This document shows positions 3,490 to 28,603 of a DNA stretch of 64,000 bases, one piece after another. A model generated the notes under the pieces. That model was not told where the DNA came from. It did no database searches and worked only from the letters and a program-made list of their open reading frames with translations. How positions within the stretch are numbered: the stretch's first letter is position 1; every line of letters starts with the position of its first letter. Source of the DNA: a virus; UHGV virus genome UHGV-1519562. One strand, given 5' to 3'. A program made the position numbers and the translations under genes.

Positions 3490-4092
3490 TTAACAATTAT
3501 CCACGATAATAATACCTATACTATCAGTAGGTTTTTCTTTTATCTCAAAAGTAACTCCAAAGCCAGGAGTAGCAGTAGCCTTTTCAATTTTAGAATATTC
3601 TTCTAAATTGCTGGTATAAGTAATAATTGGCGGAACCGTACCGTCAGCACCGCACTTCAAAGTTTCAATTAAATAAGACATTTTATAAACTTCTCCATCT
3701 AATGTCCAAGCTCCTACAGATAATGTAGCAGGATAGGCTTTAGAAGTGACCTTATCAGTAGCAGTTTTAATATTATCACTTACTTCTGTTTTACTATAAA
3801 CATCTAAATTGGTTCTTGCTTCAGCCGCAGTTTTACCACCAGTGCCACCATGCTCTATATCAATAATATCAGAATTTAAAACCAATTCTTCTGGATCAAT
3901 TTCTATTTCAACTGTTCCAGCCGCATTAAATTTCCGAAGTTTTTCTGCATATCCCGCATTTAATTTATGTCTGGCATTATTAAAATCGACATACATACAA
4001 TCATTCTCTTCTAGGATATAAGCATAAGACTCCTTTACTGCGACTTGATTCATCTCAGCTTCTGTTCCATAAAAAACTTTAAATAAAGCCAT
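3490..4092 (-). CDS. distal tail or fibre-associated protein
   Basis: 200 aa, last gene of the late operon, own RBS after an upstream hairpin. Confidence 0.35.
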   Translation of the reverse strand: MALFKVFYGTEAEMNQVAVKESYAYILEENDCMYVDFNNARHKLNAGYAEKLRKFNAAGTVEIEIDPEELVLNSDIIDIEHGGTGGKTAAEARTNLDVYSKTEVSDNIKTATDKVTSKAYPATLSVGAWTLDGEVYKMSYLIETLKCGADGTVPPIITYTSNLEEYSKIEKATATPGFGVTFEIKEKPTDSIGIIIVDNC

Positions 4093-4119
4093 AATTTTCC
4101 TCCTTATATAAAAACATAA

Positions 4120-4146
4120 GGGGAAGAATAAAATCTTCCCCTTAGA
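4120..4146 (-). terminator. hairpin plus U-tract between tail-fibre gene and last late gene
   Basis: aaggggaagattttattcttcccctt on the minus strand then tgttttta and RBS. Confidence 0.45.
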
Positions 4147-4163
4147 AAAGAATATCTTATTCT

Positions 4164-6353
4164 TTAGTTTAATAAATCTGAAATTCTACCCCATGTATTA
4201 ATACTATTAATTTGGGTAATAATTTCTTCTATTTTTGTATCCAAAGTTTTAGCATTATATGTTTCTTTATCTTTATCTACTGGACTGGAATTAATTCTAT
4301 TGCCGACAGTAGTAATTAAATTATCTATTACTTTAGCAGTGTAAGTACCTTTTGTTTTATCAGCAGGTTCATCACTGATTAAAGCTGCAACTTCATTTAT
4401 TTTTGTTTGTAATGCTTCATTTTTCTCATTAATAGCTTTTGCGGTATAGGTTTTTCGCTCTAAATCCGCAGCCAAAATTTCATTAACAATTAAGTTATTA
4501 ATATAATTAGCCGTATATGTTTTATTAGTGCTATTATCTATATCATACTTATCTTGTAATAAGCCGGCTACACCACCAGTTAATTGCGCTCTTCCCCAAG
4601 CATTATTTGTATAATAATACCAATATGCGGTATCACCATTTTCAACAGAAGAATAAGTCACTTGTAAAATTTCATCTGAACTTATACCATTAGGATAATA
4701 AGCTTTTAATTTATTTCCAATATTTTCAAGTGTATCAACACCATCTGCTTCAGTAAAAGTATATGAATTTTTAATATTAAGAGCTTTACCAACTGGGCCT
4801 TCTATGTTTTTATTAGTTTTAGTCCAAGCTGTACCATTAAATAAATATATATTACCTCTAAAATCATCTGTCATATCATCAATAGAATAAAGGTAATAGT
4901 CTCCATTTTGAGCGCCTTCAATAATAGTATTTAACTTATTATCATTCACTTCATCGCCTACAAACCAACGTGCGCCGCTAGGTAGTATAAATTTAAAATT
5001 AATAGTATCAGTACCGACAATACTTTTTTCTACTGTTCCTTCATCTGCGGAACCAACATCTTCATAAGTAGAAGTAATGTTTGGAATTGTTGGAAAAATA
5101 AACTTATGAATAGGGCCAGTTTTTTCAATAGGGTCTTTATAACTAGACTCAACAGTAACGTCTACTCTTTCTCCTGATTCAGTAAATGGATCTTTTATAT
5201 CAGTTTGTACTTCAGGAGTTTTACCAGCCAAACAAGCACAATAAACAAAAGTAGTAGAAGTTTCAGTAATCTGACTAATATAATAAATAAAACCAGTATC
5301 TTTATTTATATAATAATCTCCTACTTTCGCATTAGGAACAATAGTACCTAAAGAATAAGTTATATCTTTTGATTGTCCTAATAAATCTCCATAAAAAAAT
5401 TCTGTTGATTCTGGCAAATTAAAAGTAAACTGCGGATTATCGGGATCAGCAGAGATTTCAACTGTTGGTAATTCCGCAGGAGCTAAATGATTAGTAATAA
5501 CATCAGTGCGAAATTTCTGTGAGCGTGGAATTTTTAAATGAATTGTTACTATATGGTCATTATCATAAGTCAAAGAACATTCAGGTGTTTGACCTGGTTC
5601 TAAAGTACTAAAATCAATAGGAGCAAAATCATAACCTTTAGGCAACCACATATTCAATTTTTTTGTTTGTTTATCTTCATCCAAAGTAATCGTTGCTCTT
5701 GGCTCAGAATCCGCAGAAATATATTCAATATTTCCAATTTCAAATTCCCACATTTCTGGCAAAGTAAAAGTAATAATAGGATGATTAATATCATCCTCAT
5801 TATAATTCAATGTAGGAACAACAGTTTCGCCAGGTTTCTTAGTAATTAAATCTGCCATAACCATTACTTGGCTTTGCGGTAAACTAAATAAAACTGAAGG
5901 AAAGTCTGTGTCATTATTATCTACATCTACTGTTGGCTCTTGATCTGCATTAAGAACAGTAGATGGCAAAATAATTTTAATTCTAGGAGTTTCACCAGTT
6001 AAAGAAGTAATTAATTTATAACCAAGACCATAATTTTTGTCTGACAAATATAAAATTTCTATTCCTCTAATTGGTTCTTCTCCCGCATGTTCTTCTTCAG
6101 TAAAAATTTTTTGCCAAAGAGTAGAGTTATAAGCTCTTTTATATTTTGCGGTATCTACATCTTTATTAGCATCATAAATTGCTCGTTGTTCAGGAGTTCC
6201 ACCAGGTAGGCCATAAGAAATCATTACAATTTCTCCAACTCCAATAGGAGATTGCCATCTTTTGTCTAAATCGGCTACCATAGCAACTTTATTTTTAAAT
6301 ATTTGTTTTATCTCAAAGTTTTTTCCTTGCTGTCCACCATAAAAACTAAACAA
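4164..6353 (-). CDS. tail fibre / receptor-binding protein with C-terminal triple repeat
   Basis: 729 aa; three 25-30 aa repeats (KTYTAKAINE.., KGTYTAKVIDN.., KETYNAKTLDTK..) at the C-terminus; position in tail module. Confidence 0.5.
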   Translation of the reverse strand: MFSFYGGQQGKNFEIKQIFKNKVAMVADLDKRWQSPIGVGEIVMISYGLPGGTPEQRAIYDANKDVDTAKYKRAYNSTLWQKIFTEEEHAGEEPIRGIEILYLSDKNYGLGYKLITSLTGETPRIKIILPSTVLNADQEPTVDVDNNDTDFPSVLFSLPQSQVMVMADLITKKPGETVVPTLNYNEDDINHPIITFTLPEMWEFEIGNIEYISADSEPRATITLDEDKQTKKLNMWLPKGYDFAPIDFSTLEPGQTPECSLTYDNDHIVTIHLKIPRSQKFRTDVITNHLAPAELPTVEISADPDNPQFTFNLPESTEFFYGDLLGQSKDITYSLGTIVPNAKVGDYYINKDTGFIYYISQITETSTTFVYCACLAGKTPEVQTDIKDPFTESGERVDVTVESSYKDPIEKTGPIHKFIFPTIPNITSTYEDVGSADEGTVEKSIVGTDTINFKFILPSGARWFVGDEVNDNKLNTIIEGAQNGDYYLYSIDDMTDDFRGNIYLFNGTAWTKTNKNIEGPVGKALNIKNSYTFTEADGVDTLENIGNKLKAYYPNGISSDEILQVTYSSVENGDTAYWYYYTNNAWGRAQLTGGVAGLLQDKYDIDNSTNKTYTANYINNLIVNEILAADLERKTYTAKAINEKNEALQTKINEVAALISDEPADKTKGTYTAKVIDNLITTVGNRINSSPVDKDKETYNAKTLDTKIEEIITQINSINTWGRISDLLN

Positions 6354-16486: not shown

Positions 16487-19400
16487 TTATTTTCTAATAC
16501 TAGCATATTGAGCCGCATCATTAACAATATTATTAAGAGCTGCTTCGATTTCTGCTGCACTGGATACACCAGGGAAATCAGCTTGAATATGCACTATCTG
16601 TTCAACTATTTGTCCATCACTAGAAATAGTAGTAGAACTAGCCATACGAGCATTTAATAAATTTTGCCCTGCCATTATATTATTATCCAAAATTCTTTCT
16701 ATTTGTTTAAACAAATTAGGCCCTAATGTTCTAACTGCGGAAACAGCGGAAAGAATATTTTCAGTATCCTCTTGGTTCAAAACTAATTCTTTCTCATGTA
16801 AAAATGCTAATTTGCCATCTTCATTATCAAAAGAACCAGTATATCCTCCTGTTGCGTAACCTATTGTATGACTTTTAACAAAGTCCTCATATTTTCCGGT
16901 TCCGCCATTATCTTTTAGCCATTTCTGAAACTCTGGATCATTTTGCTTATTATAATAATCTTCATTAGAATAAATATACTGTTTACCTTGTTCAAAATTT
17001 TCTCCAAGAATTTTCAAATATCTTTGATATTCTAAACTCTTAAATATTTCATCTCCAACTTGTCCACCTTGGCTTAAATAATCATTCATAACAGAAGAAT
17101 AGTCAATATTAGAATTATACCCTTTCATATCACCAACAGAAGCAGCAACTGTTCTAGTAGTTACAAAATTAGACATTTCATACAAAGTATCTAATGCTTG
17201 ACGTACACATGCTGCATAATTAGACCATTGCTCTGAAGCTTGGCGGACTTCTTCAATTTTCTTCCAAACAGCATCCGCGGCTTGAGTACCCGCAGTAGTT
17301 AAATCTTGAGTAGATTTAGTAGTATCATCAATAATTTGTCTTAAAGTGTCTACATTTGAGCCAGTAGTCTCAGTAACTTCTTCCATAGTGCCATTATAAT
17401 TATCAGCAGCATTTTCCATTTCATCAAGAGCAGTTTCAAAATATGCAGTAAAGTTAGAAGTACCCATTTCCATAATCTTCATTACATCATTATAAGTATT
17501 TCCATATTCTGTAATTATTTCTCCGCCTGCGTCAGTCATATCTTCTAAAGATACTTGATACTCTTGCTGAATATAAAGGATTTTATCATTCGCATTTCTA
17601 CGAATTTCTGCAATCTTTTCTCCACGTTCTTCTTCAGTTAAACTTTCATCTTCATAAACATCTTTAATTTGGTCTAAAGTATCTTGTTTTAATTGCAGAA
17701 TTTCATCCATCATATTTTTAACTTGGTCTTTTGCTATATTATAATAATTATTTGCTGCATCTTCATACTTTTGAGTAGCTTCATCAATTTTAGACTGATC
17801 AGCTGTAAATTGATAATCCCAGTTGCCGGATTCATTGCGGACTAACCGCACTGAATTTTTAGCATTTTGAGCTTCATCCAAGGCATTTTGAGCAAGAGTC
17901 ATTTGATATTTTGCTTCTAAAATATCCAAATCATATTTAGATAATTTATTACCTTCACGTCTTACTTCAATTTCTTTTTGTAATGTTTTTAATCTATTCT
18001 TAGAAGCTTCATTAGTTTCTTCATCTATTGCTTTTTGAAGTTGTCTATTCCATTTACTTACTTCATATGTTTCATTAACTTTATCTAAATATCTTTCTTC
18101 TTTACTAATTAAATTATCATATTTTTGCTGCAATAATTCTAAACCCATTCCGCCACTAATAGCTTGCTCAAAATCATAAGCAGCTTTCTCAATAGCATTA
18201 GTATAATACTCTCTTGCAGTTTCCATGGCTTCTTTAGCTGCATCTAACATAGCTTCTTGAGATTCATTAAATTGTTTTAATAAAGCATCACGATTATTTT
18301 TAAGAGTATCATAAGCTGCATCTTCTTCAGTAACTCCAGCCAAAGCTTTTTCTGCTTCTGCTAATTGTTCCGCAGCTTTTTCCATCCATTGCTTTTGCAA
18401 TTTGGCAGTAGATGTAGCTGTTTCCAATCTTCCTTGAACAGTTTTCTGTAAAAGTTCAAAATTCTTACCAGTTTTATAAGTTATTCCTTGTAAATCTAAT
18501 AATTCTTTTACTGAATCTAATACAGTACCATTATGGTCTAATTGATCAGTAAATTGTGCAAATCTGTCAGCTGCCGCATCAATAACATCAGTTAAATACT
18601 CTCTAAGATTTTCTAACCAATCTTTTAAATCAGAAACAGTATCGGCAATATTGCCATGTAAATCTTCTAAAGAATCTATAACACTTTCAAAATCAGCACT
18701 ATCTTCAGATTCAGACATAAGATTAAATATCTGATTCATATGCTCTTCTAAGTCTTTAGCTTTAGCTAAATTGTCTTGCATACCAAAGAAATCAATTTGT
18801 CCAGGTTTTTTACCCCAATTAACAGCATCGCCAAAAGCTTCAACAACATTTTTACCTATTTCTCTATTAGTATCTTTAAAATCTTTAATCTTTAATTTAA
18901 CTTCTATAACAGCATTAATACTACTTAATTTTTCATCAAATTTCTTTCTAGCATCTTCAGCAATATTTTCTAAAAGTTCAACTCTTTGCTTTTGATCATT
19001 TTCATATTGTTCTAAGATTTCTTTTCTTAAATCAAGTGTTTTCTTTGCGGCATCAAGAGTATCTTTAAAAGATTCCTGCGCGGTTTTAGAACCTAAAGCA
19101 TTATATTTTCTTACTACTTTATTATATTCTTCTATTGCCCATTTTTCTAAATCTTCATAATTTAATAGAGCTTTACTATCAGAATCTATATTTAATTTAA
19201 CACCAGAAAAATTCTTTTGTAAATCAGTTAAATCTTCACTTAAATATTTTTCAGCTTCTTTTAATTTTTCTTTATATAATTCTTGTTCTTTGTTAATTGC
19301 TTCAATTTTTTCTTTATACTTTTCTAATTTTTTAACACCAAAAGCTCTATCTTTAGCAGTATCAATTTTATCTAATAATTGGCTTTGCTCTTCTAATCTA

Positions 19401-22400
19401 TTGTTAATATCGTGGTATCTATCATCAAAAATTTCTTCATCTTCAATTTCAGGAGAATCATCTGAGCCGGAGCCGCCACCTCCGCCTTTTCCTTTTCCTC
19501 CCTTTCCTTTACCACCTTTGCCTTTTCCTCCTCCTCCACCAGAAGGACGATTGTTATCAGTAGAAATACCATGAGGGTTAAGAGTTCTACCGCCAGTTCC
19601 TCCTCCTGAAGGGGCAAAAGCTTTTAAACCTTGAGACAATACAGATTGTTTACCATATTCTTCTAATGCAGAACCGAAAGCAGAAAGGTTTTCTAAAAAC
19701 CCTGGTGTCTCACCTTTACTAGCAGCACCAGTATCTTTTGAACGAATATGATTTGATTTACCGGGGCCATTAACTTTTTTCGCGCTTGCCGAACCAGTGG
19801 TGCTAAACATGGGCGAACCACCAGAACCAGAACCCGTTAAATCAATATGAGCAGAAGGCATGTCCCATTCAAAAGGAATTTTTCCTCCTGTTGTAAGTAA
19901 AGCGCCAATTTTATCGGCTAATCCCCCACCTAAACCAATACCACCAGGATTATCAACAACACCAGTCGCTTGAATAGTATAACTAAAACTACTAATAGCA
20001 CTTGCCAAAGATTGTAATAACTGTCCACCAATTTGACATAAAGTACCAATACTAACCTGACTCTGAGCTGCTAGACCATTAATTGCAGAAGAAGCTACTG
20101 CTGTATTTCCTTGCATAGCACTAGCTAATTGACTTTGAGAAGTAATTAAACTAGAATCAAAACCAGCATTTTCAGCTTCCATGTGGGTCATAATCGCACT
20201 AAAAGCTTCAGCATTTGTATCTTTTAAAGACCAAATATCGGCAGCCATAGTATCGCACATATTTTTAAATTTAGTTGTTGTTGTATCAAAATTATCAGGT
20301 AATTCAAGCCAATTCTTATCATTTAAATAATTTTTAAAATAATCATAATAAGAAGTAATATCATCTATTGCTTTTTTAAATCCTTCAGCTTGATCAACTT
20401 GCTTTTCCCAAGTATTTAAATTTTGAACTTTTTTCTGGGCATCTTTATAATCTTGTGTAGCTTTAGTTGCATCATCAATATTATCAGTAACAACTTTATA
20501 ACCATCTGCTGTTTTAGTGATATATTTATTAGATTTAGCAGTGATATTCATTAAAGCTTTAGTACCTTTAACTGCACCAGCATAATATTCCTGCATATTA
20601 GTGCCGCCAGCTTCAACTTCACTAATTAAATCTTTAAAACCATCAGCCAAAGCAGTAGTAGAGGAAATCATAGTTTTTGCATAATCAGATTCTTTAAGAC
20701 CATCTATACCATCACTTAGTTTTGCAAAATTATCTCCAGTTTTACTAACTCTTTGATTTATTGCATCAAAATATTCACTCGCACTAATTTTTCCCTCTTG
20801 GAACGCTTGAGCCTGTCTTCTAAGTGCTTCAGTATTTTTATCAAAATCTTCTCCACTATCTGCACGTTCTTGATCAGACCAATTTTTACTACTTTCAATT
20901 AAACTACTATAAAGATCAACATACTGCTGAGCATAATCTCTATCAACTTTACCTTTGTTTTGCATAGATTCAATAGCTTGGTCTAATGCCAATTTCTCAG
21001 CTTTTTCCATTTCAGTAAAGTCGGTTAAAGATTGAGTAGTTAAAACATACTCATCTCCAACCTTTTTAATATATTGAGCATATTCACTATTAGCTTTAAT
21101 TAGCTCATAGGTTTGATCCATAGTAAGATAGCCCTGTTCTTTATAAGACATCAAAGCTTTTTCTAATGGTTCTTCATTAGTATTTAAATTGTCTATTTTA
21201 GCTTTTGCTGCGTCTAATTCAGAAGTATCTACCTTAACTTTAAGGTCTGTATTTTTAGCATTTTCAACAGCTTCCATTAATTCTCTAAAAGAACCAATGT
21301 TTTCTAAATCCAAGGTAAGAATAATATCCCAATCTTCAGCAGTTAATTTATTTAATTGCTCTTCAGTTCCACCTATTTCAGATTTAATGGTTTCTCTAGC
21401 TTGAGACATTCTTTCTGCAATTTGATTAAATAAATCATCAACAGAAATTCCCGCAGCTTCAATAGCAGAACGCATTTCATCTGTTAGAGCTAATCCAGCG
21501 CCTTTAATATCTCCAGAAGATAAAGCCCTAAAAATCTTATCTCTTACTTCATCAAAAGATTCATCATCTAATACCGGACGGATAACCATTTCATAATACT
21601 GATTATCAGTAGGATATATTAATTTTCTTAATTCTGCTAATTTGTCCTGCATATCTGCAATCATTGATGGATCGGCCACAATTGCACCAGAATCAACAGC
21701 GCCTAAATAATTAGCATAGTCTTGTTCTAATTCAGCTAAATCTTCTCCTACTTCAGAAGTCATTTGTGCGGTAGCTTCTGCTATTTGTTGCGTCCAATTC
21801 TGATATTGGTCTAATGCTTTTGCTTGTTGGTCAGAATTTAAACTATTATACCATTTATCTAAATCTTCTTGTGTTTTGAAATTAGAGGTATCAGCACCAG
21901 TTTTACCTTTTGGTTCTACTTTATAGGTCTTGTCATATTTTTTGTCAAAATTATCCGCAATAGCATAAGCCATTTCTGCTTGTTTAGCTTTAACTATACG
22001 CTCTCTTAAAGTAGCTTGTCTCTCTAAAGAAGCTTCTTGCTGTTTTAAATTAGCTAACTCATCTTGCTCAACAAGAGATAAAGAATCTTTAGATTCTAAT
22101 TCTTCTATCTTCTGTCTGGTTTGCTCTAAAGAACTATTTAACTCATCTAATTTGCTCTTTTGGTCAGAATAATTTTGAGTAGCATCTGTAATAGCTTGAC
22201 TAGCCTCTTTTTGAGTTACGACTAAAGCATCAACTATTTTTACAGCAGCTACAATTCCAGCCGCAAAAAGTGCCAAAACACCAATGGTTATGCCCATAGC
22301 TGCTGCTAAACTACCTTCAGAAACAGTAAGCAATTTTGTAATTGCAACATTAGCTATTTTTGCGGCTATATTTCCTTCTTCAGCCGCAGTATTTAATTTT

Positions 22401-25081
22401 GTAATAAAAGTAAGAGCTGCTACTGAAGTATTTACACCAGTATAAACTGAAACAAGAGCACCCATTGACTTTGACAAAGCCATGAAAAGACTACTGCCAC
22501 TCATCAAAATCATACCCAAATTAGTCATAATTTGAATGAAAGCTTCTCCCGCAGTAATATTTCCTTCCATAGATTCTTTGAAAACTTTACCCATATTACT
22601 AACCGCGGAAAGAGTCATTCCAAAATTTATAAGATGATTAGACATGCTTACAACAGTTTTTGCCCAACCCGATTCACTTTGAATACTACCAGTCTGCAAA
22701 CTATTCATAAATTTTTTTATTTGTTCATTAATTAATCTTGTATACTCCGCGGCACTATGTTCTTCAGCGGCTAATCTTCTTATCGAATTAATAAATTGAT
22801 CAATAGCTTCAGGAGAATAACTTAATTCCATTAAAGCTTGCTTTAAAAGTTGCATCCCTTTAGAAGCTTCTATTGACTGAGTACCTAAATTATTCAAAAA
22901 TTCTTGTAGTTTAGGAGTAGACCAATTTTGCATTTCTGTTTTCCACAAGCCGGTTTTTTGAATTAACTCTTGTAAAACAGCAGCACTTTCTTTTTGATCT
23001 ATATTTAAATTACTATAAGCTCGTCTTATTACCTCTATAGAACTAGCTTGAGATGCTAACTTTTGCATACTCGCTGTAACTTTTTCTGTAGTTCTTGTTA
23101 TGTCATCTTTTTCATCAAACAAAAAGACAGAATTAAGATTCTTTAATGGCCCATTAACCATATTGGTATTAAACTGTAAAATCTTCTGTCTAAATCTTTC
23201 TTCCCAACCAGGTTTTGGCTCTATATCTAACAATATAGTTGTTTTAAATTCTTCAGCTTCGCCCAACAAAGCAGTTTGCTTTTGAGCAGAAGTCATAATC
23301 TGTTGACGCAAAGCATCAATAACACCTACTCGCTGATTAACTTGCGACATTTGACTTTGGTCATAATTCTTAGTATATTTATTAATCATACCTTGCAACT
23401 GAACTTTTTCTCGCATTAAAGAAATTTCAGTTTCTAAAGCACGATTACCACCAATTATAATATCAAGATTTTCAGCTTCAGTTACAGTCTGTTCTTGTAA
23501 ACCTCTTGTTAATTTTCCTTGAAGTCCAGTCATGATCTGAATATTAGTAACAAAATTTTGTAAACCATTTATTAATTTACCACTATAAACAGAAGTAAGA
23601 ACAGAACCAACAACTAAAGCAATACCTTTTAATCCACCTAAAGCATTAACAACTTGTGCTATTCCGCTTAAAAATGGAGTTAAAACATCATCAATAGCAA
23701 CAATGCTCTCAGGATTCAAAATGCTATCATAAATATCTTCCGCCGCAGCTTTAACTCTTTTTCCTGCGGCTTCCCAAGATTCTGCATAAATATCAGCTTG
23801 TTTATTCAATTCACCTTCAGAATTTTGAGCAATCTTCAAATTATCTTCAAAGAGATCCCAGTTATCCATGAAAGAAACTAGCTGATTATATTGATGAACA
23901 CCAGCTACTGTTTGTGCTAATGCTACTTGCTGATCTTTTGCTAAAGTATCCCATTTTGCGCCCATATCCTCTAAGATTGAATCCATATTACGCAATTCAC
24001 CATTAGAGTCTTTAATTGAAATACCGACTTTGCTTAAAGCTTCCGAATACTTATTTAAATCAGTACCATCTTCAAGAGTTTCCCCTAAATTTAAACCCTG
24101 AATACGAGCAAAGATAGTTTTTAAAGCAGTACCAACAACATCTTCGCTTTGACGAGTTGTGGCAGTAATTGTTGCCAAAGCAGAAGCAGCATAATCAAAA
24201 CTCAATCCAATCGTATCAGCGATTGATGCAAACTTTTCTAAGCCACCTGCAATCTCATCCGAACTAGAAGCAGTAGCAGCACCTAGTGCCACCATCGCAT
24301 CAGCATAATGCTCTAATGATTGTGAACCATCATAGAAGTTATTCCAAACCGCAGTTAATTGGTTAGAAACTACTTGAGCACTTTCATTTGCGGCATTAGC
24401 CATTTTAATAGTAATATCAGTTCTATCAAGAACTTCTTTATCATTTAAACCTTGCTGATAATATATTAATGCTGCATCCGTATAATCTGTTGTTGTTGTA
24501 CTTAAATTTTTTGCAGCACTATTAGCTTGAACTGCAAAATCAGCCATTTGTTCAGCTGATTGTCCAGTAACAATTCTGATAGAATTTAAAGATTTATCTA
24601 AAGCTTTAGAATATTCAACACAAGTATTTAGAGCTCCCATAAATCCATGTAACGCACTTGAAGTTAATTGCCAACGAGCAGTATTTTTCATTGTTGTCCA
24701 CAATTCATCTAATACCTTATTAGTACGTCTCATCGGTAATTCCGCAGAAGTAACTGCTTGCGCAACTTTCATAAAAGCTTGCTGACCAGTAGGGCCTAAC
24801 TGAGATAATTGCTTAGCATAATCACTAATGGTCATCTTACTATTAGCTAAATTTCTATTAAAAGTTACTAAATCTAATTTTCCTGTTTCTTGATTAGTAG
24901 CAGTTTTTAAATTATTAGCTAATTCTAATGCAGATTTAGATGCTTCCCGCATACCCTGAGTCATTTGAGTAGTTGAAGAAGTACCCAATTTTTGTAAAGC
25001 TTTTACAGCATCATTTAAAGACGCTTTTAATTGTGAAGTATCACCAGTAAAGCCTACTTCATAATTAAGTCTTTTAGCCAT
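16487..25081 (-). CDS. tape measure protein
   Basis: 2,864 aa, coiled-coil-rich, internal Gly/Lys linker (GGGGGKGKGGKGKGGKGKGGGGGSGS), hydrophobic segments; canonical position after major tail protein. Confidence 0.8.
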   Translation of the reverse strand: MAKRLNYEVGFTGDTSQLKASLNDAVKALQKLGTSSTTQMTQGMREASKSALELANNLKTATNQETGKLDLVTFNRNLANSKMTISDYAKQLSQLGPTGQQAFMKVAQAVTSAELPMRRTNKVLDELWTTMKNTARWQLTSSALHGFMGALNTCVEYSKALDKSLNSIRIVTGQSAEQMADFAVQANSAAKNLSTTTTDYTDAALIYYQQGLNDKEVLDRTDITIKMANAANESAQVVSNQLTAVWNNFYDGSQSLEHYADAMVALGAATASSSDEIAGGLEKFASIADTIGLSFDYAASALATITATTRQSEDVVGTALKTIFARIQGLNLGETLEDGTDLNKYSEALSKVGISIKDSNGELRNMDSILEDMGAKWDTLAKDQQVALAQTVAGVHQYNQLVSFMDNWDLFEDNLKIAQNSEGELNKQADIYAESWEAAGKRVKAAAEDIYDSILNPESIVAIDDVLTPFLSGIAQVVNALGGLKGIALVVGSVLTSVYSGKLINGLQNFVTNIQIMTGLQGKLTRGLQEQTVTEAENLDIIIGGNRALETEISLMREKVQLQGMINKYTKNYDQSQMSQVNQRVGVIDALRQQIMTSAQKQTALLGEAEEFKTTILLDIEPKPGWEERFRQKILQFNTNMVNGPLKNLNSVFLFDEKDDITRTTEKVTASMQKLASQASSIEVIRRAYSNLNIDQKESAAVLQELIQKTGLWKTEMQNWSTPKLQEFLNNLGTQSIEASKGMQLLKQALMELSYSPEAIDQFINSIRRLAAEEHSAAEYTRLINEQIKKFMNSLQTGSIQSESGWAKTVVSMSNHLINFGMTLSAVSNMGKVFKESMEGNITAGEAFIQIMTNLGMILMSGSSLFMALSKSMGALVSVYTGVNTSVAALTFITKLNTAAEEGNIAAKIANVAITKLLTVSEGSLAAAMGITIGVLALFAAGIVAAVKIVDALVVTQKEASQAITDATQNYSDQKSKLDELNSSLEQTRQKIEELESKDSLSLVEQDELANLKQQEASLERQATLRERIVKAKQAEMAYAIADNFDKKYDKTYKVEPKGKTGADTSNFKTQEDLDKWYNSLNSDQQAKALDQYQNWTQQIAEATAQMTSEVGEDLAELEQDYANYLGAVDSGAIVADPSMIADMQDKLAELRKLIYPTDNQYYEMVIRPVLDDESFDEVRDKIFRALSSGDIKGAGLALTDEMRSAIEAAGISVDDLFNQIAERMSQARETIKSEIGGTEEQLNKLTAEDWDIILTLDLENIGSFRELMEAVENAKNTDLKVKVDTSELDAAKAKIDNLNTNEEPLEKALMSYKEQGYLTMDQTYELIKANSEYAQYIKKVGDEYVLTTQSLTDFTEMEKAEKLALDQAIESMQNKGKVDRDYAQQYVDLYSSLIESSKNWSDQERADSGEDFDKNTEALRRQAQAFQEGKISASEYFDAINQRVSKTGDNFAKLSDGIDGLKESDYAKTMISSTTALADGFKDLISEVEAGGTNMQEYYAGAVKGTKALMNITAKSNKYITKTADGYKVVTDNIDDATKATQDYKDAQKKVQNLNTWEKQVDQAEGFKKAIDDITSYYDYFKNYLNDKNWLELPDNFDTTTTKFKNMCDTMAADIWSLKDTNAEAFSAIMTHMEAENAGFDSSLITSQSQLASAMQGNTAVASSAINGLAAQSQVSIGTLCQIGGQLLQSLASAISSFSYTIQATGVVDNPGGIGLGGGLADKIGALLTTGGKIPFEWDMPSAHIDLTGSGSGGSPMFSTTGSASAKKVNGPGKSNHIRSKDTGAASKGETPGFLENLSAFGSALEEYGKQSVLSQGLKAFAPSGGGTGGRTLNPHGISTDNNRPSGGGGGKGKGGKGKGGKGKGGGGGSGSDDSPEIEDEEIFDDRYHDINNRLEEQSQLLDKIDTAKDRAFGVKKLEKYKEKIEAINKEQELYKEKLKEAEKYLSEDLTDLQKNFSGVKLNIDSDSKALLNYEDLEKWAIEEYNKVVRKYNALGSKTAQESFKDTLDAAKKTLDLRKEILEQYENDQKQRVELLENIAEDARKKFDEKLSSINAVIEVKLKIKDFKDTNREIGKNVVEAFGDAVNWGKKPGQIDFFGMQDNLAKAKDLEEHMNQIFNLMSESEDSADFESVIDSLEDLHGNIADTVSDLKDWLENLREYLTDVIDAAADRFAQFTDQLDHNGTVLDSVKELLDLQGITYKTGKNFELLQKTVQGRLETATSTAKLQKQWMEKAAEQLAEAEKALAGVTEEDAAYDTLKNNRDALLKQFNESQEAMLDAAKEAMETAREYYTNAIEKAAYDFEQAISGGMGLELLQQKYDNLISKEERYLDKVNETYEVSKWNRQLQKAIDEETNEASKNRLKTLQKEIEVRREGNKLSKYDLDILEAKYQMTLAQNALDEAQNAKNSVRLVRNESGNWDYQFTADQSKIDEATQKYEDAANNYYNIAKDQVKNMMDEILQLKQDTLDQIKDVYEDESLTEEERGEKIAEIRRNANDKILYIQQEYQVSLEDMTDAGGEIITEYGNTYNDVMKIMEMGTSNFTAYFETALDEMENAADNYNGTMEEVTETTGSNVDTLRQIIDDTTKSTQDLTTAGTQAADAVWKKIEEVRQASEQWSNYAACVRQALDTLYEMSNFVTTRTVAASVGDMKGYNSNIDYSSVMNDYLSQGGQVGDEIFKSLEYQRYLKILGENFEQGKQYIYSNEDYYNKQNDPEFQKWLKDNGGTGKYEDFVKSHTIGYATGGYTGSFDNEDGKLAFLHEKELVLNQEDTENILSAVSAVRTLGPNLFKQIERILDNNIMAGQNLLNARMASSTTISSDGQIVEQIVHIQADFPGVSSAAEIEAALNNIVNDAAQYASIRK

Positions 25082-25199: not shown

Positions 25200-25748
25200 T
25201 TAGCCAACAATATTCTTAATTTCAGAAAGAGTCTCTAAACCTTCACCATTCTTAATTTTCTCTAAAATTTCAGTAAACTGTTCATCCATGCCACCTGCAT
25301 TATCAGAAATCATATTCAACATTCCGGCAAAAGAATTATTAAATCTTGCAATATCAGCAATAGTTTTACTAACGGCATTAGTTAAAAAGTTAAACTCAGA
25401 TTCAGGAATAGCACTCATAATTCTAGTAAAAACTCCATTACTTTCTAATACATCATAAATTTTAGCAGCATTTTCAATTTGCTTGTCAGTAAAAGTAATT
25501 CCTGCATAATACTTAGCAATAGCAAGAGCAAAATAAGTTTCAATTCTAATCTCACTAAAACAACCAGTCTTTTCATCAATCGCGTTTTCCGCGACAAAAG
25601 TAATCAAAGCAGCCTTCTGCTCAATTGGCAAATATTGACGCACTTCTACTTTAAGTTCCTCATCAAGTTCTAGATTAAGATAAATAGTTGCATATTCATC
25701 TTTCATCTTCATTTTCATATTTAATTTACTAAAAGTAACTTTAGACAT
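25200..25748 (-). CDS. tail assembly chaperone-like protein
   Basis: 182 aa acidic helical protein immediately upstream of the tape measure gene. Confidence 0.4.
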   Translation of the reverse strand: MSKVTFSKLNMKMKMKDEYATIYLNLELDEELKVEVRQYLPIEQKAALITFVAENAIDEKTGCFSEIRIETYFALAIAKYYAGITFTDKQIENAAKIYDVLESNGVFTRIMSAIPESEFNFLTNAVSKTIADIARFNNSFAGMLNMISDNAGGMDEQFTEILEKIKNGEGLETLSEIKNIVG

Positions 25749-25812: not shown

Positions 25813-27219
25813 TTAAATAGGTATTCCATTCACCGCTGTTAAATATTTTCTTAAATTAGAACTAACATATCTACCACTAATATGACCTTGCATTGCAATA
25901 CTATTAATTTGATTATAAGCTCTTTTTACACGAACAGCTTTATTTGCTTTATTTGTTATATCTTTTTGACCAACCCAACTGTTATCAACAGCACTTTTAG
26001 TCAAAGAAATACTAAATAAATCACCACTACTTAAAGAACCATATAAATTTCCTTCTCTAACTGCATTTTTAGCATCATTAACTATATCAGCTAATATAGT
26101 TAATACTGGATATGCTCTAAAATTATATACTAATACTCTTTGTGCTTCAGCCGTATTAAAACCAATTAAAAAGTTTTCTGCAAATTTAGCGATTAAATCT
26201 TGTCGAATAATTCTAAAGTTAGTATCCAATGCTCCTGATTCTTGTCCGGCGCTAAAAGCTAAAGTGTTATATATTTGATAATCAATTGAGTTTCCACCAC
26301 CATACAATTGATGTAAAGCTGGAATTAAAAAAGAATTTTTTCCAGAATAACTTGTTAAAGACAAACCATCCGCTGTTCTATAAGTCTTTACAGTAGCAAA
26401 AGTTTCTACATCAAAAGTATCATAAAGTTCAACACCTTGGCTACCTTGTGAACCGCCCATATTATAAGAAAAATATGAATTTCCTAAACTAATATCTGCG
26501 GATTTAGATTGAATTTCTTTAAATTCTCCACTAAAACTTACTCTAATATTTTGTGATTGAGTACCAAGTAATAAATCTTTTACTTCTGTGTCACTTTTTG
26601 CTTCAGCATATGTTCCTATTAAGGCCGCTAAAGCTTCTGAAGGTTTAGTCAAAATTGAATTTAAAGTATTTCGATAATTTTCTCCATTCATAGCAGCTTC
26701 AATGACTTTCATAAAAGCTTGAACATTAATTAATTCATTTATAGAAATATCAGAATAAATTTGTTGAGGATTATCTTTTAACATTTCATATAAAGCAACA
26801 GCATCTTTATTTTGGTGAAAAACAGCTATTATTTGAGCTAATGATTTTATTGCCCCATCTTTGTCTCCTGATTTTAAGGCTGCAACATATCCATCAACTC
26901 CCATATTATATCCACCAATATTTCCTCCCAATTTGCTTGCAGCTTTATTATATTCTTCAACAATTTTATTTTCTATTTGTTTTTCCATTTTTTCAAATTT
27001 TGCTAATTCCATACCTTCTATAAAAGCTTTCTTTTTAGCATCTGTTTGTTGACTGGAGAGTTGTGCTTTCATCATATTTAAATATCTTGTTTTAATAGCT
27101 GCCATTTTATTTGTTGTTTGAGCATAAGGAGTTAAAGTTCCTCCTATATAATGTTCAGGTTTACTATGAATATTAGGATAGCTAGTTCCATCATATTCAA
27201 AAACAAAATCACTACTCAT
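25813..27219 (-). CDS. hypothetical structural protein
   Basis: 468 aa between major tail protein and chaperone-like gene. Confidence 0.4.
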   Translation of the reverse strand: MSSDFVFEYDGTSYPNIHSKPEHYIGGTLTPYAQTTNKMAAIKTRYLNMMKAQLSSQQTDAKKKAFIEGMELAKFEKMEKQIENKIVEEYNKAASKLGGNIGGYNMGVDGYVAALKSGDKDGAIKSLAQIIAVFHQNKDAVALYEMLKDNPQQIYSDISINELINVQAFMKVIEAAMNGENYRNTLNSILTKPSEALAALIGTYAEAKSDTEVKDLLLGTQSQNIRVSFSGEFKEIQSKSADISLGNSYFSYNMGGSQGSQGVELYDTFDVETFATVKTYRTADGLSLTSYSGKNSFLIPALHQLYGGGNSIDYQIYNTLAFSAGQESGALDTNFRIIRQDLIAKFAENFLIGFNTAEAQRVLVYNFRAYPVLTILADIVNDAKNAVREGNLYGSLSSGDLFSISLTKSAVDNSWVGQKDITNKANKAVRVKRAYNQINSIAMQGHISGRYVSSNLRKYLTAVNGIPI

Positions 27220-27237
27220 ATTTTCTCCTTAAAACAA

Positions 27238-27265
27238 AAAATAGGGAAGAGTAAAACTCTTCCCT
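27238..27265 (-). terminator. hairpin plus U-tract after the major tail protein region
   Basis: Minus strand: tagggaagagt ttta ctcttcccta then ttttttgtttt and RBS. Confidence 0.45.
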
Positions 27266-27272
27266 ATTTTTA

Positions 27273-27661
27273 TTAATCAGTTAATTTAGAACCATCAATA
27301 ATATATTTAGTATCATTAATAGTAACTTCCGCAGTAGAACCAATCTTAATTAACAAAGCGTAATCAGAATCAGTTCCATCATATTCCTTAGTCTTGGTAT
27401 AAACGCCACCAACTTCAGTGATATTAACATCACCTTTATTATAATAATATTTTAAAGCTTCATTCTTTTGAATAATAGTAGCACCATTTTTAGGAATAAT
27501 ATTATTTAATCTAACAAGCACATACTTATTTAAAGTATCTTCTGTTGCTATATCCCCAAATAGCCCTTGATATTCTGCGGGAATATCAGTTTTATCTACA
27601 GTGCCAACTAAAGAATAGGTATTCCCTAGTTGACTAATTTTAATATTACTATTTGGGGTAA
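27273..27661 (-). CDS. -1 frame extension of the major tail protein (beta-rich, Ig-like candidate), probably made by frameshifting at the major tail protein stop
   Basis: This frame is open from the base after the major tail protein stop to 27273 with no start codon for 46 codons; junction GCU UUU UAA lets P-site tRNA-Phe slip -1 on U5. Confidence 0.5.
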
Positions 27662-28603
27662 TTAAAAAGCCGCCTTACAATTCTCGCGGTAAGCGGTATC
27701 TTCACCAGTGCTATCTTCAATTACCTGAATAGCAGCAAGAACCTTTTTAGTAGGATCAAACTTAGTGTATCCAGGGAAAGCGTCCATAGTAAAGGTAAAG
27801 GTAGAAGGATCGCCAGAGCTTGCCATAGAGAAAGTAAAGTTAGACTGAATCTTACCATTAGGAATGATGAACTCAGCAGGCATGTCAACACCATCGGACT
27901 CTCTACGGAATAAAGTAGAACCTTCTAGGTAATAACTACCAGCAAATTCATCAGGAGTAATCTCAATCATCTTAGCATTGCCGATCTTCTTAGCATAATA
28001 GTCAACAAGAACAACAGAACCTTCAGCTAATTTCTCAACACCTTCAGCATCAGCGTAACAAACAATAGTAGTTTTCTTCTTAGTGTCATCATAAGTCATA
28101 GAAGCAGGGACACAAGGCTCAACTTTAACTTCACCGGCGTCATCAAGAGCCATGCAGAAAACATCTGCTTCCTTATGGAAATCATAATTTGTTCCTGACT
28201 TGTCCCCTTCTTGCGCACGTCCGCCATTCCAGCAAATTTTACCATCAACAGCAAATTTGCCTTCAGCATCAACCTGCACTTGAGAAGTAGTATGAACATA
28301 AATAGGGGCTTCCGCAGAAGCATCCATCAAACCAGCACCGGAAAGAATTGCAAAACTTTCAGGGGAAAGCAATGCATCTTCCATTGTAAATGTAAGAGTC
28401 TTCTCACCTTCCCAGGCAATTAATCTAGAGTTACCACGTCCGCCTTGAGCATAAACTGTGGTAGCTTGACCTTCTAGGCTAGAAGTCTTTAAAGTATCAA
28501 AATAAAGAACAGGCTCATTCTTATAAAAAGTACGAGCACCTAGAGTTTGCTTTGCTTTAGCACGCAACACAACATCACAGATCTCGCGTACACCAAATCT
28601 CAT
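27662..28603 (-). CDS. major tail protein
   Basis: 313 aa, elevated GC and C/T-ending codons (highly expressed); upstream of chaperone and tape measure genes. Confidence 0.6.
   Translation of the reverse strand: MRFGVREICDVVLRAKAKQTLGARTFYKNEPVLYFDTLKTSSLEGQATTVYAQGGRGNSRLIAWEGEKTLTFTMEDALLSPESFAILSGAGLMDASAEAPIYVHTTSQVQVDAEGKFAVDGKICWNGGRAQEGDKSGTNYDFHKEADVFCMALDDAGEVKVEPCVPASMTYDDTKKKTTIVCYADAEGVEKLAEGSVVLVDYYAKKIGNAKMIEITPDEFAGSYYLEGSTLFRRESDGVDMPAEFIIPNGKIQSNFTFSMASSGDPSTFTFTMDAFPGYTKFDPTKKVLAAIQVIEDSTGEDTAYRENCKAAF

Follow-up and report, generated by a model that had tools for sequence, protein, structure and literature searches.

The window, which is the whole stretch of 64,000 nt analysed here from the virus genome UHGV-1519562, carries on its minus strand a gene for a 313-aa protein (27662..28603) that ends in a TAA stop and is preceded by a strong Shine-Dalgarno sequence (AAGGAGG, -11.1 kcal/mol). 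Its product is the tail tube (major tail) protein, of the YomU/SPbeta type, of a siphophage of ~137 kb from human gut metagenomes. The initial annotation had called it a major tail protein, and the following evidence agrees. The 313-aa protein matches phrog_2729 (E 1.5e-55), and the Pfam family PF27173 (YomU_Tube) is precomputed on tube homologs that are 96-97% identical to it; our local Pfam search of the protein itself, presumably run with an older copy of Pfam, gave no match. Used as a tblastn query, the protein finds annotated major tail or tail tube proteins of Tsamsa-like Bacillus phages, as well as unnamed proteins of 949-group Lactococcus phages, Enterococcus EF1-like phages and the gut phage Phass-1. 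Next to the homologs with PF27173, YomW and YomV (YomV_2nd) lie on the upstream side, and on the downstream side come a YomO-like gene and a PhageMin_Tail tape measure; this order is shared by the window, where it ends in a tape measure of 2864 aa, so that both a family profile match and the conserved tail-module neighbourhood of YomU_Tube are present. Since a phmmer search of PDB with the tube protein (E <= 1) gave no match, its relation to the solved SPR tube is a distant one.

Some features of the surrounding genes can be recorded here. A 468-aa ORF (25813..27219, minus strand) with no Pfam or PHROG match separates the tube gene from the YomO-like chaperone candidate (25200..25748) and is kept in all close relatives at 468-545 aa. 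The gap from the 182-aa ORF to the tape measure is only 118 nt, which leaves no sign of a classical overlapping chaperone frame of the G/GT type. The tape measure itself (16487..25081, minus strand) contains a Gly/Lys low-complexity tract, GGGGGKGKGGKGKGGKGKGGGGGSGSDD. The Phass-1 tube homolog (L003, OQ749652.1 42820-44436) is longer, at 538 aa, with a large insertion in its middle, in the decoration domain region, and a C-terminal tail of ~94 aa. Its record belongs to the 'code 15' clade, in which TAG is reassigned; the late genes of the window show no sign of reassignment, and at the junction described below the matter is irrelevant, the stop there being TAA and the 2864-aa tape measure being free of in-frame stops under code 11. 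The tube gene is intact in the window and interrupted in certain relatives (L086:1954-3860, L090:1772-4022, L093:904-3022, L096:35-3022 and L099:777-3022), where an ORF for a homing endonuclease (HNH or LAGLIDADG) stands between a short exon-like 5' ORF (e.g. 66 aa) and a 3' part of 240-265 aa. This arrangement points to mobile group I introns, or else inteins, within the gene for the tail tube.

On the minus strand the tube ORF ends with GCG GCT TTT TAA, the stop being at 27664..27662 and a run of five T at 27668..27664, within GCT TTT TAA. The -1 frame opens at 27674, with a 10-nt overlap with the tube ORF, and closes at the stop 27275..27273. The two frames are open together only from the -1 TAA at 27677..27675 to the 0-frame TAA (27662..27677); a frame change is possible solely within these four codons, and the U5 run is located there. 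Read from TTA at 27665..27663, the -1 frame adds an extension of 130 codons (LITPNSNIK...GSKLTD) before its TAA (27273..27665), which fused to the tube protein gives 443 aa. The predicted tryptic peptide of the fusion at the junction is AAFLITPNSNIK, in which AAF, following the tube's ...ENCK, is joined to LITPNSNIK and then ISQ.... Both the +1 frame and readthrough past the tube stop meet stops within a few codons. A strong intrinsic terminator with a 16-bp stem and a T-run (27237..27271, minus strand) stands directly after the extension stop, and no terminator was found after the 313-aa tube stop. The first ATG, GTG or TTG in the -1 frame is GTG 27521, at codon 49, which leaves 48 start-less codons. 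The initial annotation had thus read the locus correctly in reporting a -1 frame open for ~130 codons at the tube stop, start-less for its first ~46 codons and without a ribosome-binding site, and a GCU UUU UAA junction with a U5 run.

The window was scanned for frames remaining open for at least 80 codons past the ends of its ORFs. Over the 122 ORF-end/frame combinations the median open length was 10 codons (window GC, 31.6%), and the tube junction was the sole long open frame abutting a stop that began with a long start-less stretch (47 codons) and was not simply the next gene. A second frame was flagged, after the ORF 6353..4164 (24 start-less codons), and was rejected as an ordinary downstream gene: at 4092..4164 on the minus strand a terminator hairpin is followed by AAGGAGG and the ATG of that gene at 4092. 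The downstream ORF at the tube junction has the form expected for a -1 frameshift, with its 10-nt overlap, 48 start-less codons and no Shine-Dalgarno sequence.

Gene callers nevertheless annotate separate proteins of 82, 135 and 154 aa at this locus or its counterparts, and the extension could be such a protein, made by independent initiation at GTG 27521, at the near-cognate AUU 27662 or at an upstream TTG/GTG. The GTG (27519..27521, minus strand), taken as start of the 82-aa ORF, is residue 49 of the extension and probably an internal Val codon: its Shine-Dalgarno pairing is 0.0 kcal/mol, compared with -6.6 to -11.7 kcal/mol in nine of ten neighbouring genes, and a start there would cut the predicted fold and drop its most conserved motif. 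AUU 27662 overlaps the tube stop in a way that would allow termination-reinitiation, the sequence UAAUU is conserved in both clades of relatives described below, and a weak SD-like AAGG precedes it (-6.6 kcal/mol, 5th percentile of background), but this AAGG is lost in the relative L088. The upstream TTG/GTG arises from a Cys codon that is conserved in the tube frame, and a TAA comes at once in four of the five window-clade variants; in L085 the upstream TTG of the -1 frame is exposed by the replacement of TGT with TGC, which is synonymous for the tube protein. Other relatives do carry, at this position, a small ORF that is unrelated to the extension and coupled to the tube stop by UAAUG, but those ORFs have an ATG. 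With an in-frame fusion in another relative (L091, below) showing that the attached form is functional, we regard independent initiation as unlikely.

The small ORFs just mentioned are found in L031-L040, L056 and L067 (e.g. L032:5008-5160), where a Lys/Glu-rich ORF of 50-64 aa lies between the tube stop and the terminator and starts at an ATG overlapping the tube stop (TAATG). They were considered as counterparts of the window's extension and found to be unrelated to it. What occupies the space from the tube stop to the terminator varies between relatives.

The out-of-frame junction recurs in 16 contigs from many separate samples, which rules out a sequencing artefact; six of the contigs are in the window's clade (clade 1) and ten in a second clade (clade 2), so that conserved arrangement and trans-frame coding are both present in two clades. 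The clade 1 contigs give five distinct sequences that are 85-97% identical, and all five distinct relatives keep the junction as yTTTTTAATTACCCCAAATAG. Clade 2 extensions are 40-50% identical to that of the window and again lie in the -1 frame, overlapping the tube stop. All lineages read (L/I)I(T/S)PN(S/K)N(I/V)KI past the shift; upstream of this convergent peptide, the peptide encoded in the -1 frame is variable and the tube frame is conserved.

In both of these diverged clades, only the -1 frame of the start-less stretch shows purifying selection. For the 48 start-less codons of clade 1 (five sequences), the -1 frame has a pN/pS of 0.21 and the other frames 2.3 and 0.51; the 82-codon part that gene callers recognise has a pN/pS of 0.40, so the start-less part is at least as constrained. 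Clade 2 (four sequences) replicates this, with 0.35 in the -1 frame against 0.90 and 0.53 elsewhere; the figures for both clades come from small samples of phylogenetically related sequences. They bear on the possibility that the extension is an unexpressed, decaying remnant of a domain once in frame, cut off by a 1-nt deletion. In-frame versions do exist, and loss of one T from a T6 run gives exactly the window sequence. Decay, however, does not fit a frame that stays open for 130-150 codons in nine distinct sequences of two clades only 40-50% identical, a pN/pS that is below 1 and lowest in the -1 frame, or a -1 offset conserved across the divergence of the clades, and we hold this explanation to be extremely improbable.

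An exhaustive profile search found one relative where the two parts are joined without a change of frame. P0010, on contig L091, is a single ORF: its tube part, 61% identical to that of the window, is followed in the same frame by a sequence homologous to residues 12-129 of the extension (44% identity, E 1e-21), the start-less part included. The linker of P0010 is 7 residues longer, so the fusion is not a 1-nt assembly error. This clean in-frame fusion rests on one contig of 2.2 kb, P0010 being a singleton cluster, and no more in-frame L091-like loci turned up among the viral and JGI metagenome contigs searched. A further group of seven contigs (L008-L012, L014 and L030; 4001-5392) has tube proteins of 463-464 aa with an in-frame C-terminal tail of ~160 aa. 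These tails are probably homologous to the window's module, judging from an hhalign comparison with the extension profile (E 2e-4 with a deeper profile, E 0.32 in the first comparison).

Three kinds of shift site occur among the relatives: the U5 run at the stop, G_GGG_GAA, and the canonical G_GGA_AAA. The clade 2 tube genes end in GTG GGG GAA TAA or, in L096-98, in GTG GGA AAA TAA; the latter places the canonical heptamer G_GGA_AAA in phase directly before the stop and nearly matches the G_GGA_AAG of the lambda G-T frameshift. Since the G5 run of clade 2 also ends the tube genes of extension-less relatives (L015-L029), it did not evolve for slippage; in those relatives a -1 frame is start-less and open for 36 codons after GGG GAA TAA, and was judged a chance opening. 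The window has no slippery heptamer of the form X_XXY_YYZ. Whether its site is read as G_GCU_UUU or U_UUU_UAA, only tRNA-Phe can re-pair, and the site is in either register a non-canonical one, with a single tRNA able to slip. Single-tRNA slippage on a homopolymer run beside a stop is a recognised non-canonical alternative, reportedly described by Weiss et al. (1987). Counting against a shift here, the context UAA-U favours strong termination in E. coli. The site of Lactobacillus phage A2 is said to be a C_CCA_AAA-type heptamer with a simple stem-loop; the A2 shift and the one proposed here are both -1 and near a 3' end, but the window has U5 at the stop and, downstream, a larger two-hairpin element with a long-range helix.

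This element is a candidate frameshift-stimulating RNA of ~105 nt (27554..27658, minus strand) in which a long-range helix, H1, encloses two hairpins, H2 and H3. H1 pairs 27658..27648, CCCCAAAUAGU, with 27564..27554, GCUAUUUGGGG; it starts 3 nt past the stop and 6 nt past the UUU codon and encloses 83 nt, holding H2 (27634..27603, 14 bp) and H3 (27588..27568, 7-8 bp). Across the clades H1 has 11-12 bp and starts 5-6 nt after the last sense codon; stimulatory structures are expected about 5-9 nt 3' of a shift site. Its clade 2 counterpart, at the same positions, is UCUCCAAAUAAA paired with UUUAUUUGGAGA, and clade 2 has inside it a 15-17-bp hairpin of its own, in another register and with several compensatory changes, and a longer second hairpin. 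In a joint alignment of nine sequences from the two clades H1 is 100% paired. Three of its 11 pairs vary, each by replacement of both partners: one is C-G or U-A, another G-C or A-U, and the third occurs as four types. The covariation score was reached by none of 500 shuffles, and slid registers drop to 35-50% pairing. H2 has two compensatory pairs within clade 1, where its shuffle statistics are weak (47/500, five sequences). As a classical stimulator on its own it was rejected, as it lies 29 nt from the shift site, which is too far, and so it makes sense only within the larger element.

The arms of H1 also encode conserved residues (TPN and LFGD). Coding alone yields about 7 bp, and the 11-bp helix has P = 0.045 under synonymous resampling. 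The in-frame lineage (L091) keeps a weaker helix of 12 bp with three G-U pairs and is therefore not a clean negative control. Folding energies were compared with a synonymous-codon null, giving z of -4.4 at the window junction, -5.1 in clade 2 and -1.6 in the in-frame lineage. For a control segment taken from within the tube gene z was also as low as -4.05, so this test is not specific and we did not rely on it. From the helix and its covariation, the H1-closed two-hairpin domain can be put forward as a candidate three-way-junction stimulator. Such a stimulator of -1 frameshifting is known from IS911 (PMC5009743); branched RNA lies downstream of the shift site in both systems, but the window element is a candidate one, and its site is non-canonical.

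The same homopolymer runs could act at the level of transcription, RNA polymerase stuttering on the T5, G5 or A4 run and inserting one base in some transcripts. There is a homopolymer run at the junction in every lineage, and one added nucleotide would give the same protein. Productive runs in bacteria, however, are typically 7-9 or more A/T, and those here are shorter, at only 4-6; a covarying helix at the spacing of a ribosomal stimulator, together with a canonical ribosomal heptamer in L096-98, also points to the ribosome. We judge transcriptional slippage to be very unlikely.

A -1 ribosomal slip at the end of the tube gene, with most ribosomes stopping at UAA, is the explanation that we consider very probable on the comparative evidence. 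The majority of ribosomes would terminate at UAA and yield the 313-aa tube protein. A fraction, we infer, shifts by -1 on the U5 run, in the two codons that precede the stop (GCU UUU), the exact codon and the efficiency being part of the same proposal, reads UUA AUU ACC... and goes on for 130 codons to give the 443-aa isoform, and the ~105-nt two-hairpin domain closed by H1 probably acts as stimulator. Two models can be considered for the slip. According to the first, which the initial annotation had proposed, the P-site tRNA-Phe would slip on UUU with UAA standing in the A site. This works for the window and for GGA AAA UAA, and fails for the GGG GAA UAA of relatives, where a P-site slip is impossible, GAA being unable to re-pair on GGA. 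According to the second, the shift would take place as the last two sense codons are translocated, a step delayed by the helix, and this fits the 5-6-nt spacing; both tRNAs could then re-pair in L096-98, only the A-site one in the window (UUU) and only the P-site one at GGG GAA. For the window the product and the junction residue (Phe313-Leu) are equal under the P-site and translocation models.

The extension itself has no match in Pfam or PHROGs, and tblastn against 50,697 annotated phages found none either. AlphaFold2 run with only 5 sequences gave a pLDDT of 55 and was unusable; with 17 sequences the pLDDT was 78.6 and the pTM 0.75. In that model residues 1-14 form a disordered or flexible linker and residues ~15-127 a beta-sandwich with one helix. 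A strand at 17-22 is predicted with lower confidence (block pLDDT 53-64), the helix at 30-42 confidently (block pLDDT 80-84), and the mainly beta domain after the helix at a pLDDT of ~90. The strand and the helix are both upstream of GTG 27521, as is the most conserved motif of the module, TDIPxEYQxLFGD (residues 26-38), and an 82-aa product would thus be a truncated domain. Foldseek against PDB and BFVD returned nothing significant, and a sequence search of PDB found only non-significant antibody chains (best E 0.088). The beta-rich nature first suggested for the extension, for which structure prediction had been the proposed check, is thus borne out in the model; of the suggested Ig-like domain, the beta-sandwich stands, and the FN3/Ig-like similarity is weak and comes without a Pfam or PHROG family.

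The isoform would consist of the tube domain, the linker of ~14 residues and a beta-sandwich of ~115 residues displayed outside the tail. Both isoforms would co-assemble into a partly decorated tail, as in SPP1, and the module would probably mediate weak, reversible binding to cell-surface polymers. Appending domains to tail proteins by frameshifting had been described in the initial annotation as frequent among phages, and there are indeed several precedents. In Bacillus phage SPP1, recoding at the end of the major tail gene adds an FN3 beta-sandwich of ~10 kDa to a fraction of the gp17.1 subunits, giving gp17.1* at a ratio of 3:1; infectivity does not require the extension, for which transient binding to cell-wall carbohydrate has been proposed (PMC8718954). 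The likeness is in a decoration appended where the gene for the major tail protein ends; the SPP1 shift, however, is +1 (PMC4759559) and the one required in the window -1, and the window's tube is of the YomU type and its module without a recognisable Pfam family. Lactobacillus phage A2 uses a -1 frameshift for an Ig-like C-terminal extension, on a head and a tail protein (PMC5009743). In the Listeria phages A118, A500 and PSA, tsh is shifted +1 at CCC_UGA, at the last sense codon of the major tail gene (PMC5009743), and the MTP-TpeX of the lactococcal 936 group is a major tail protein with a carbohydrate-binding/decoration module added by frameshift (PMC4759559, PMC6669499). In the Listeria phages and the 936 group alike the shift lies at the last sense codon, beside the stop, and the added part carries a carbohydrate-binding or decoration module, but these are +1 shifts at a 'shifty stop' (CCC_UGA or CCC.UAG), unlike the -1 shift required in the window. 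Fraser et al. 2006, as far as represented in PMC5009743, place Ig-like domains on phage structural proteins either in frame or by frameshift, and the window's module is likewise found on tube and major head proteins, in and out of frame.

The frameshift-extended tube is thus a well-supported new example of a principle already known from other phages, and leaves the present understanding of phage biology unchanged. Our literature search found no description of a frameshift in this phage lineage. What is locally new is the YomU-type tube, the unclassified module, the varied shift sites and the branched candidate stimulator. The example extends frameshift-appended tail decoration to the SPbeta/YomU-type tubes of large uncultured gut siphophages. 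For annotation it means that pipelines split such a locus into a tube gene and a spurious "hypothetical protein" of 82, 135 or 154 aa, where the correct product, if the frameshift reading holds, is the 443-aa tube isoform. The relatives also form a convenient comparative system for recoding: close relatives differ in their shift site, of which there are three, have a downstream element in common, and include an in-frame lineage as a natural control. A broader proposal, which we advance tentatively and think less likely than not, is that the ~105-nt branched RNA drives a -1 shift that tolerates three sites, and that the module is an unclassified virion-surface adhesion domain shared by phage heads, phage tails and surface proteins of gut bacteria. 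If true, this would be a natural series in which the place of recoding is set by the stimulator and not by a tandem-slippery heptamer.

The distribution of the module is that of a portable domain: it is in the -1 frame after the tube gene in the window's clade and clade 2, in frame after it in L091, and fused in frame at the C-terminal end of the major head proteins P0006 and P0007 (phrog_544). It is also found in proteins with signal-peptide-like or membrane-anchor-like ends. This pattern marks it as a new portable surface module, which may contribute to adherence to the host or to mucus. Another candidate carrier, P0005 (21 repeats), was rejected; it looks like generic Ig-like repeats, and the HMM that we built for the module did not recover it. 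P0015 (WP_412310841.1) is a 320-aa protein with the module at its C-terminal end, encoded on a 366-kb contig of a MAG of Agathobaculum desmolans, which belongs to the gut Clostridia. The protein may be a structural one from a prophage, and would then give a hint on the host range of the phages that carry the module.
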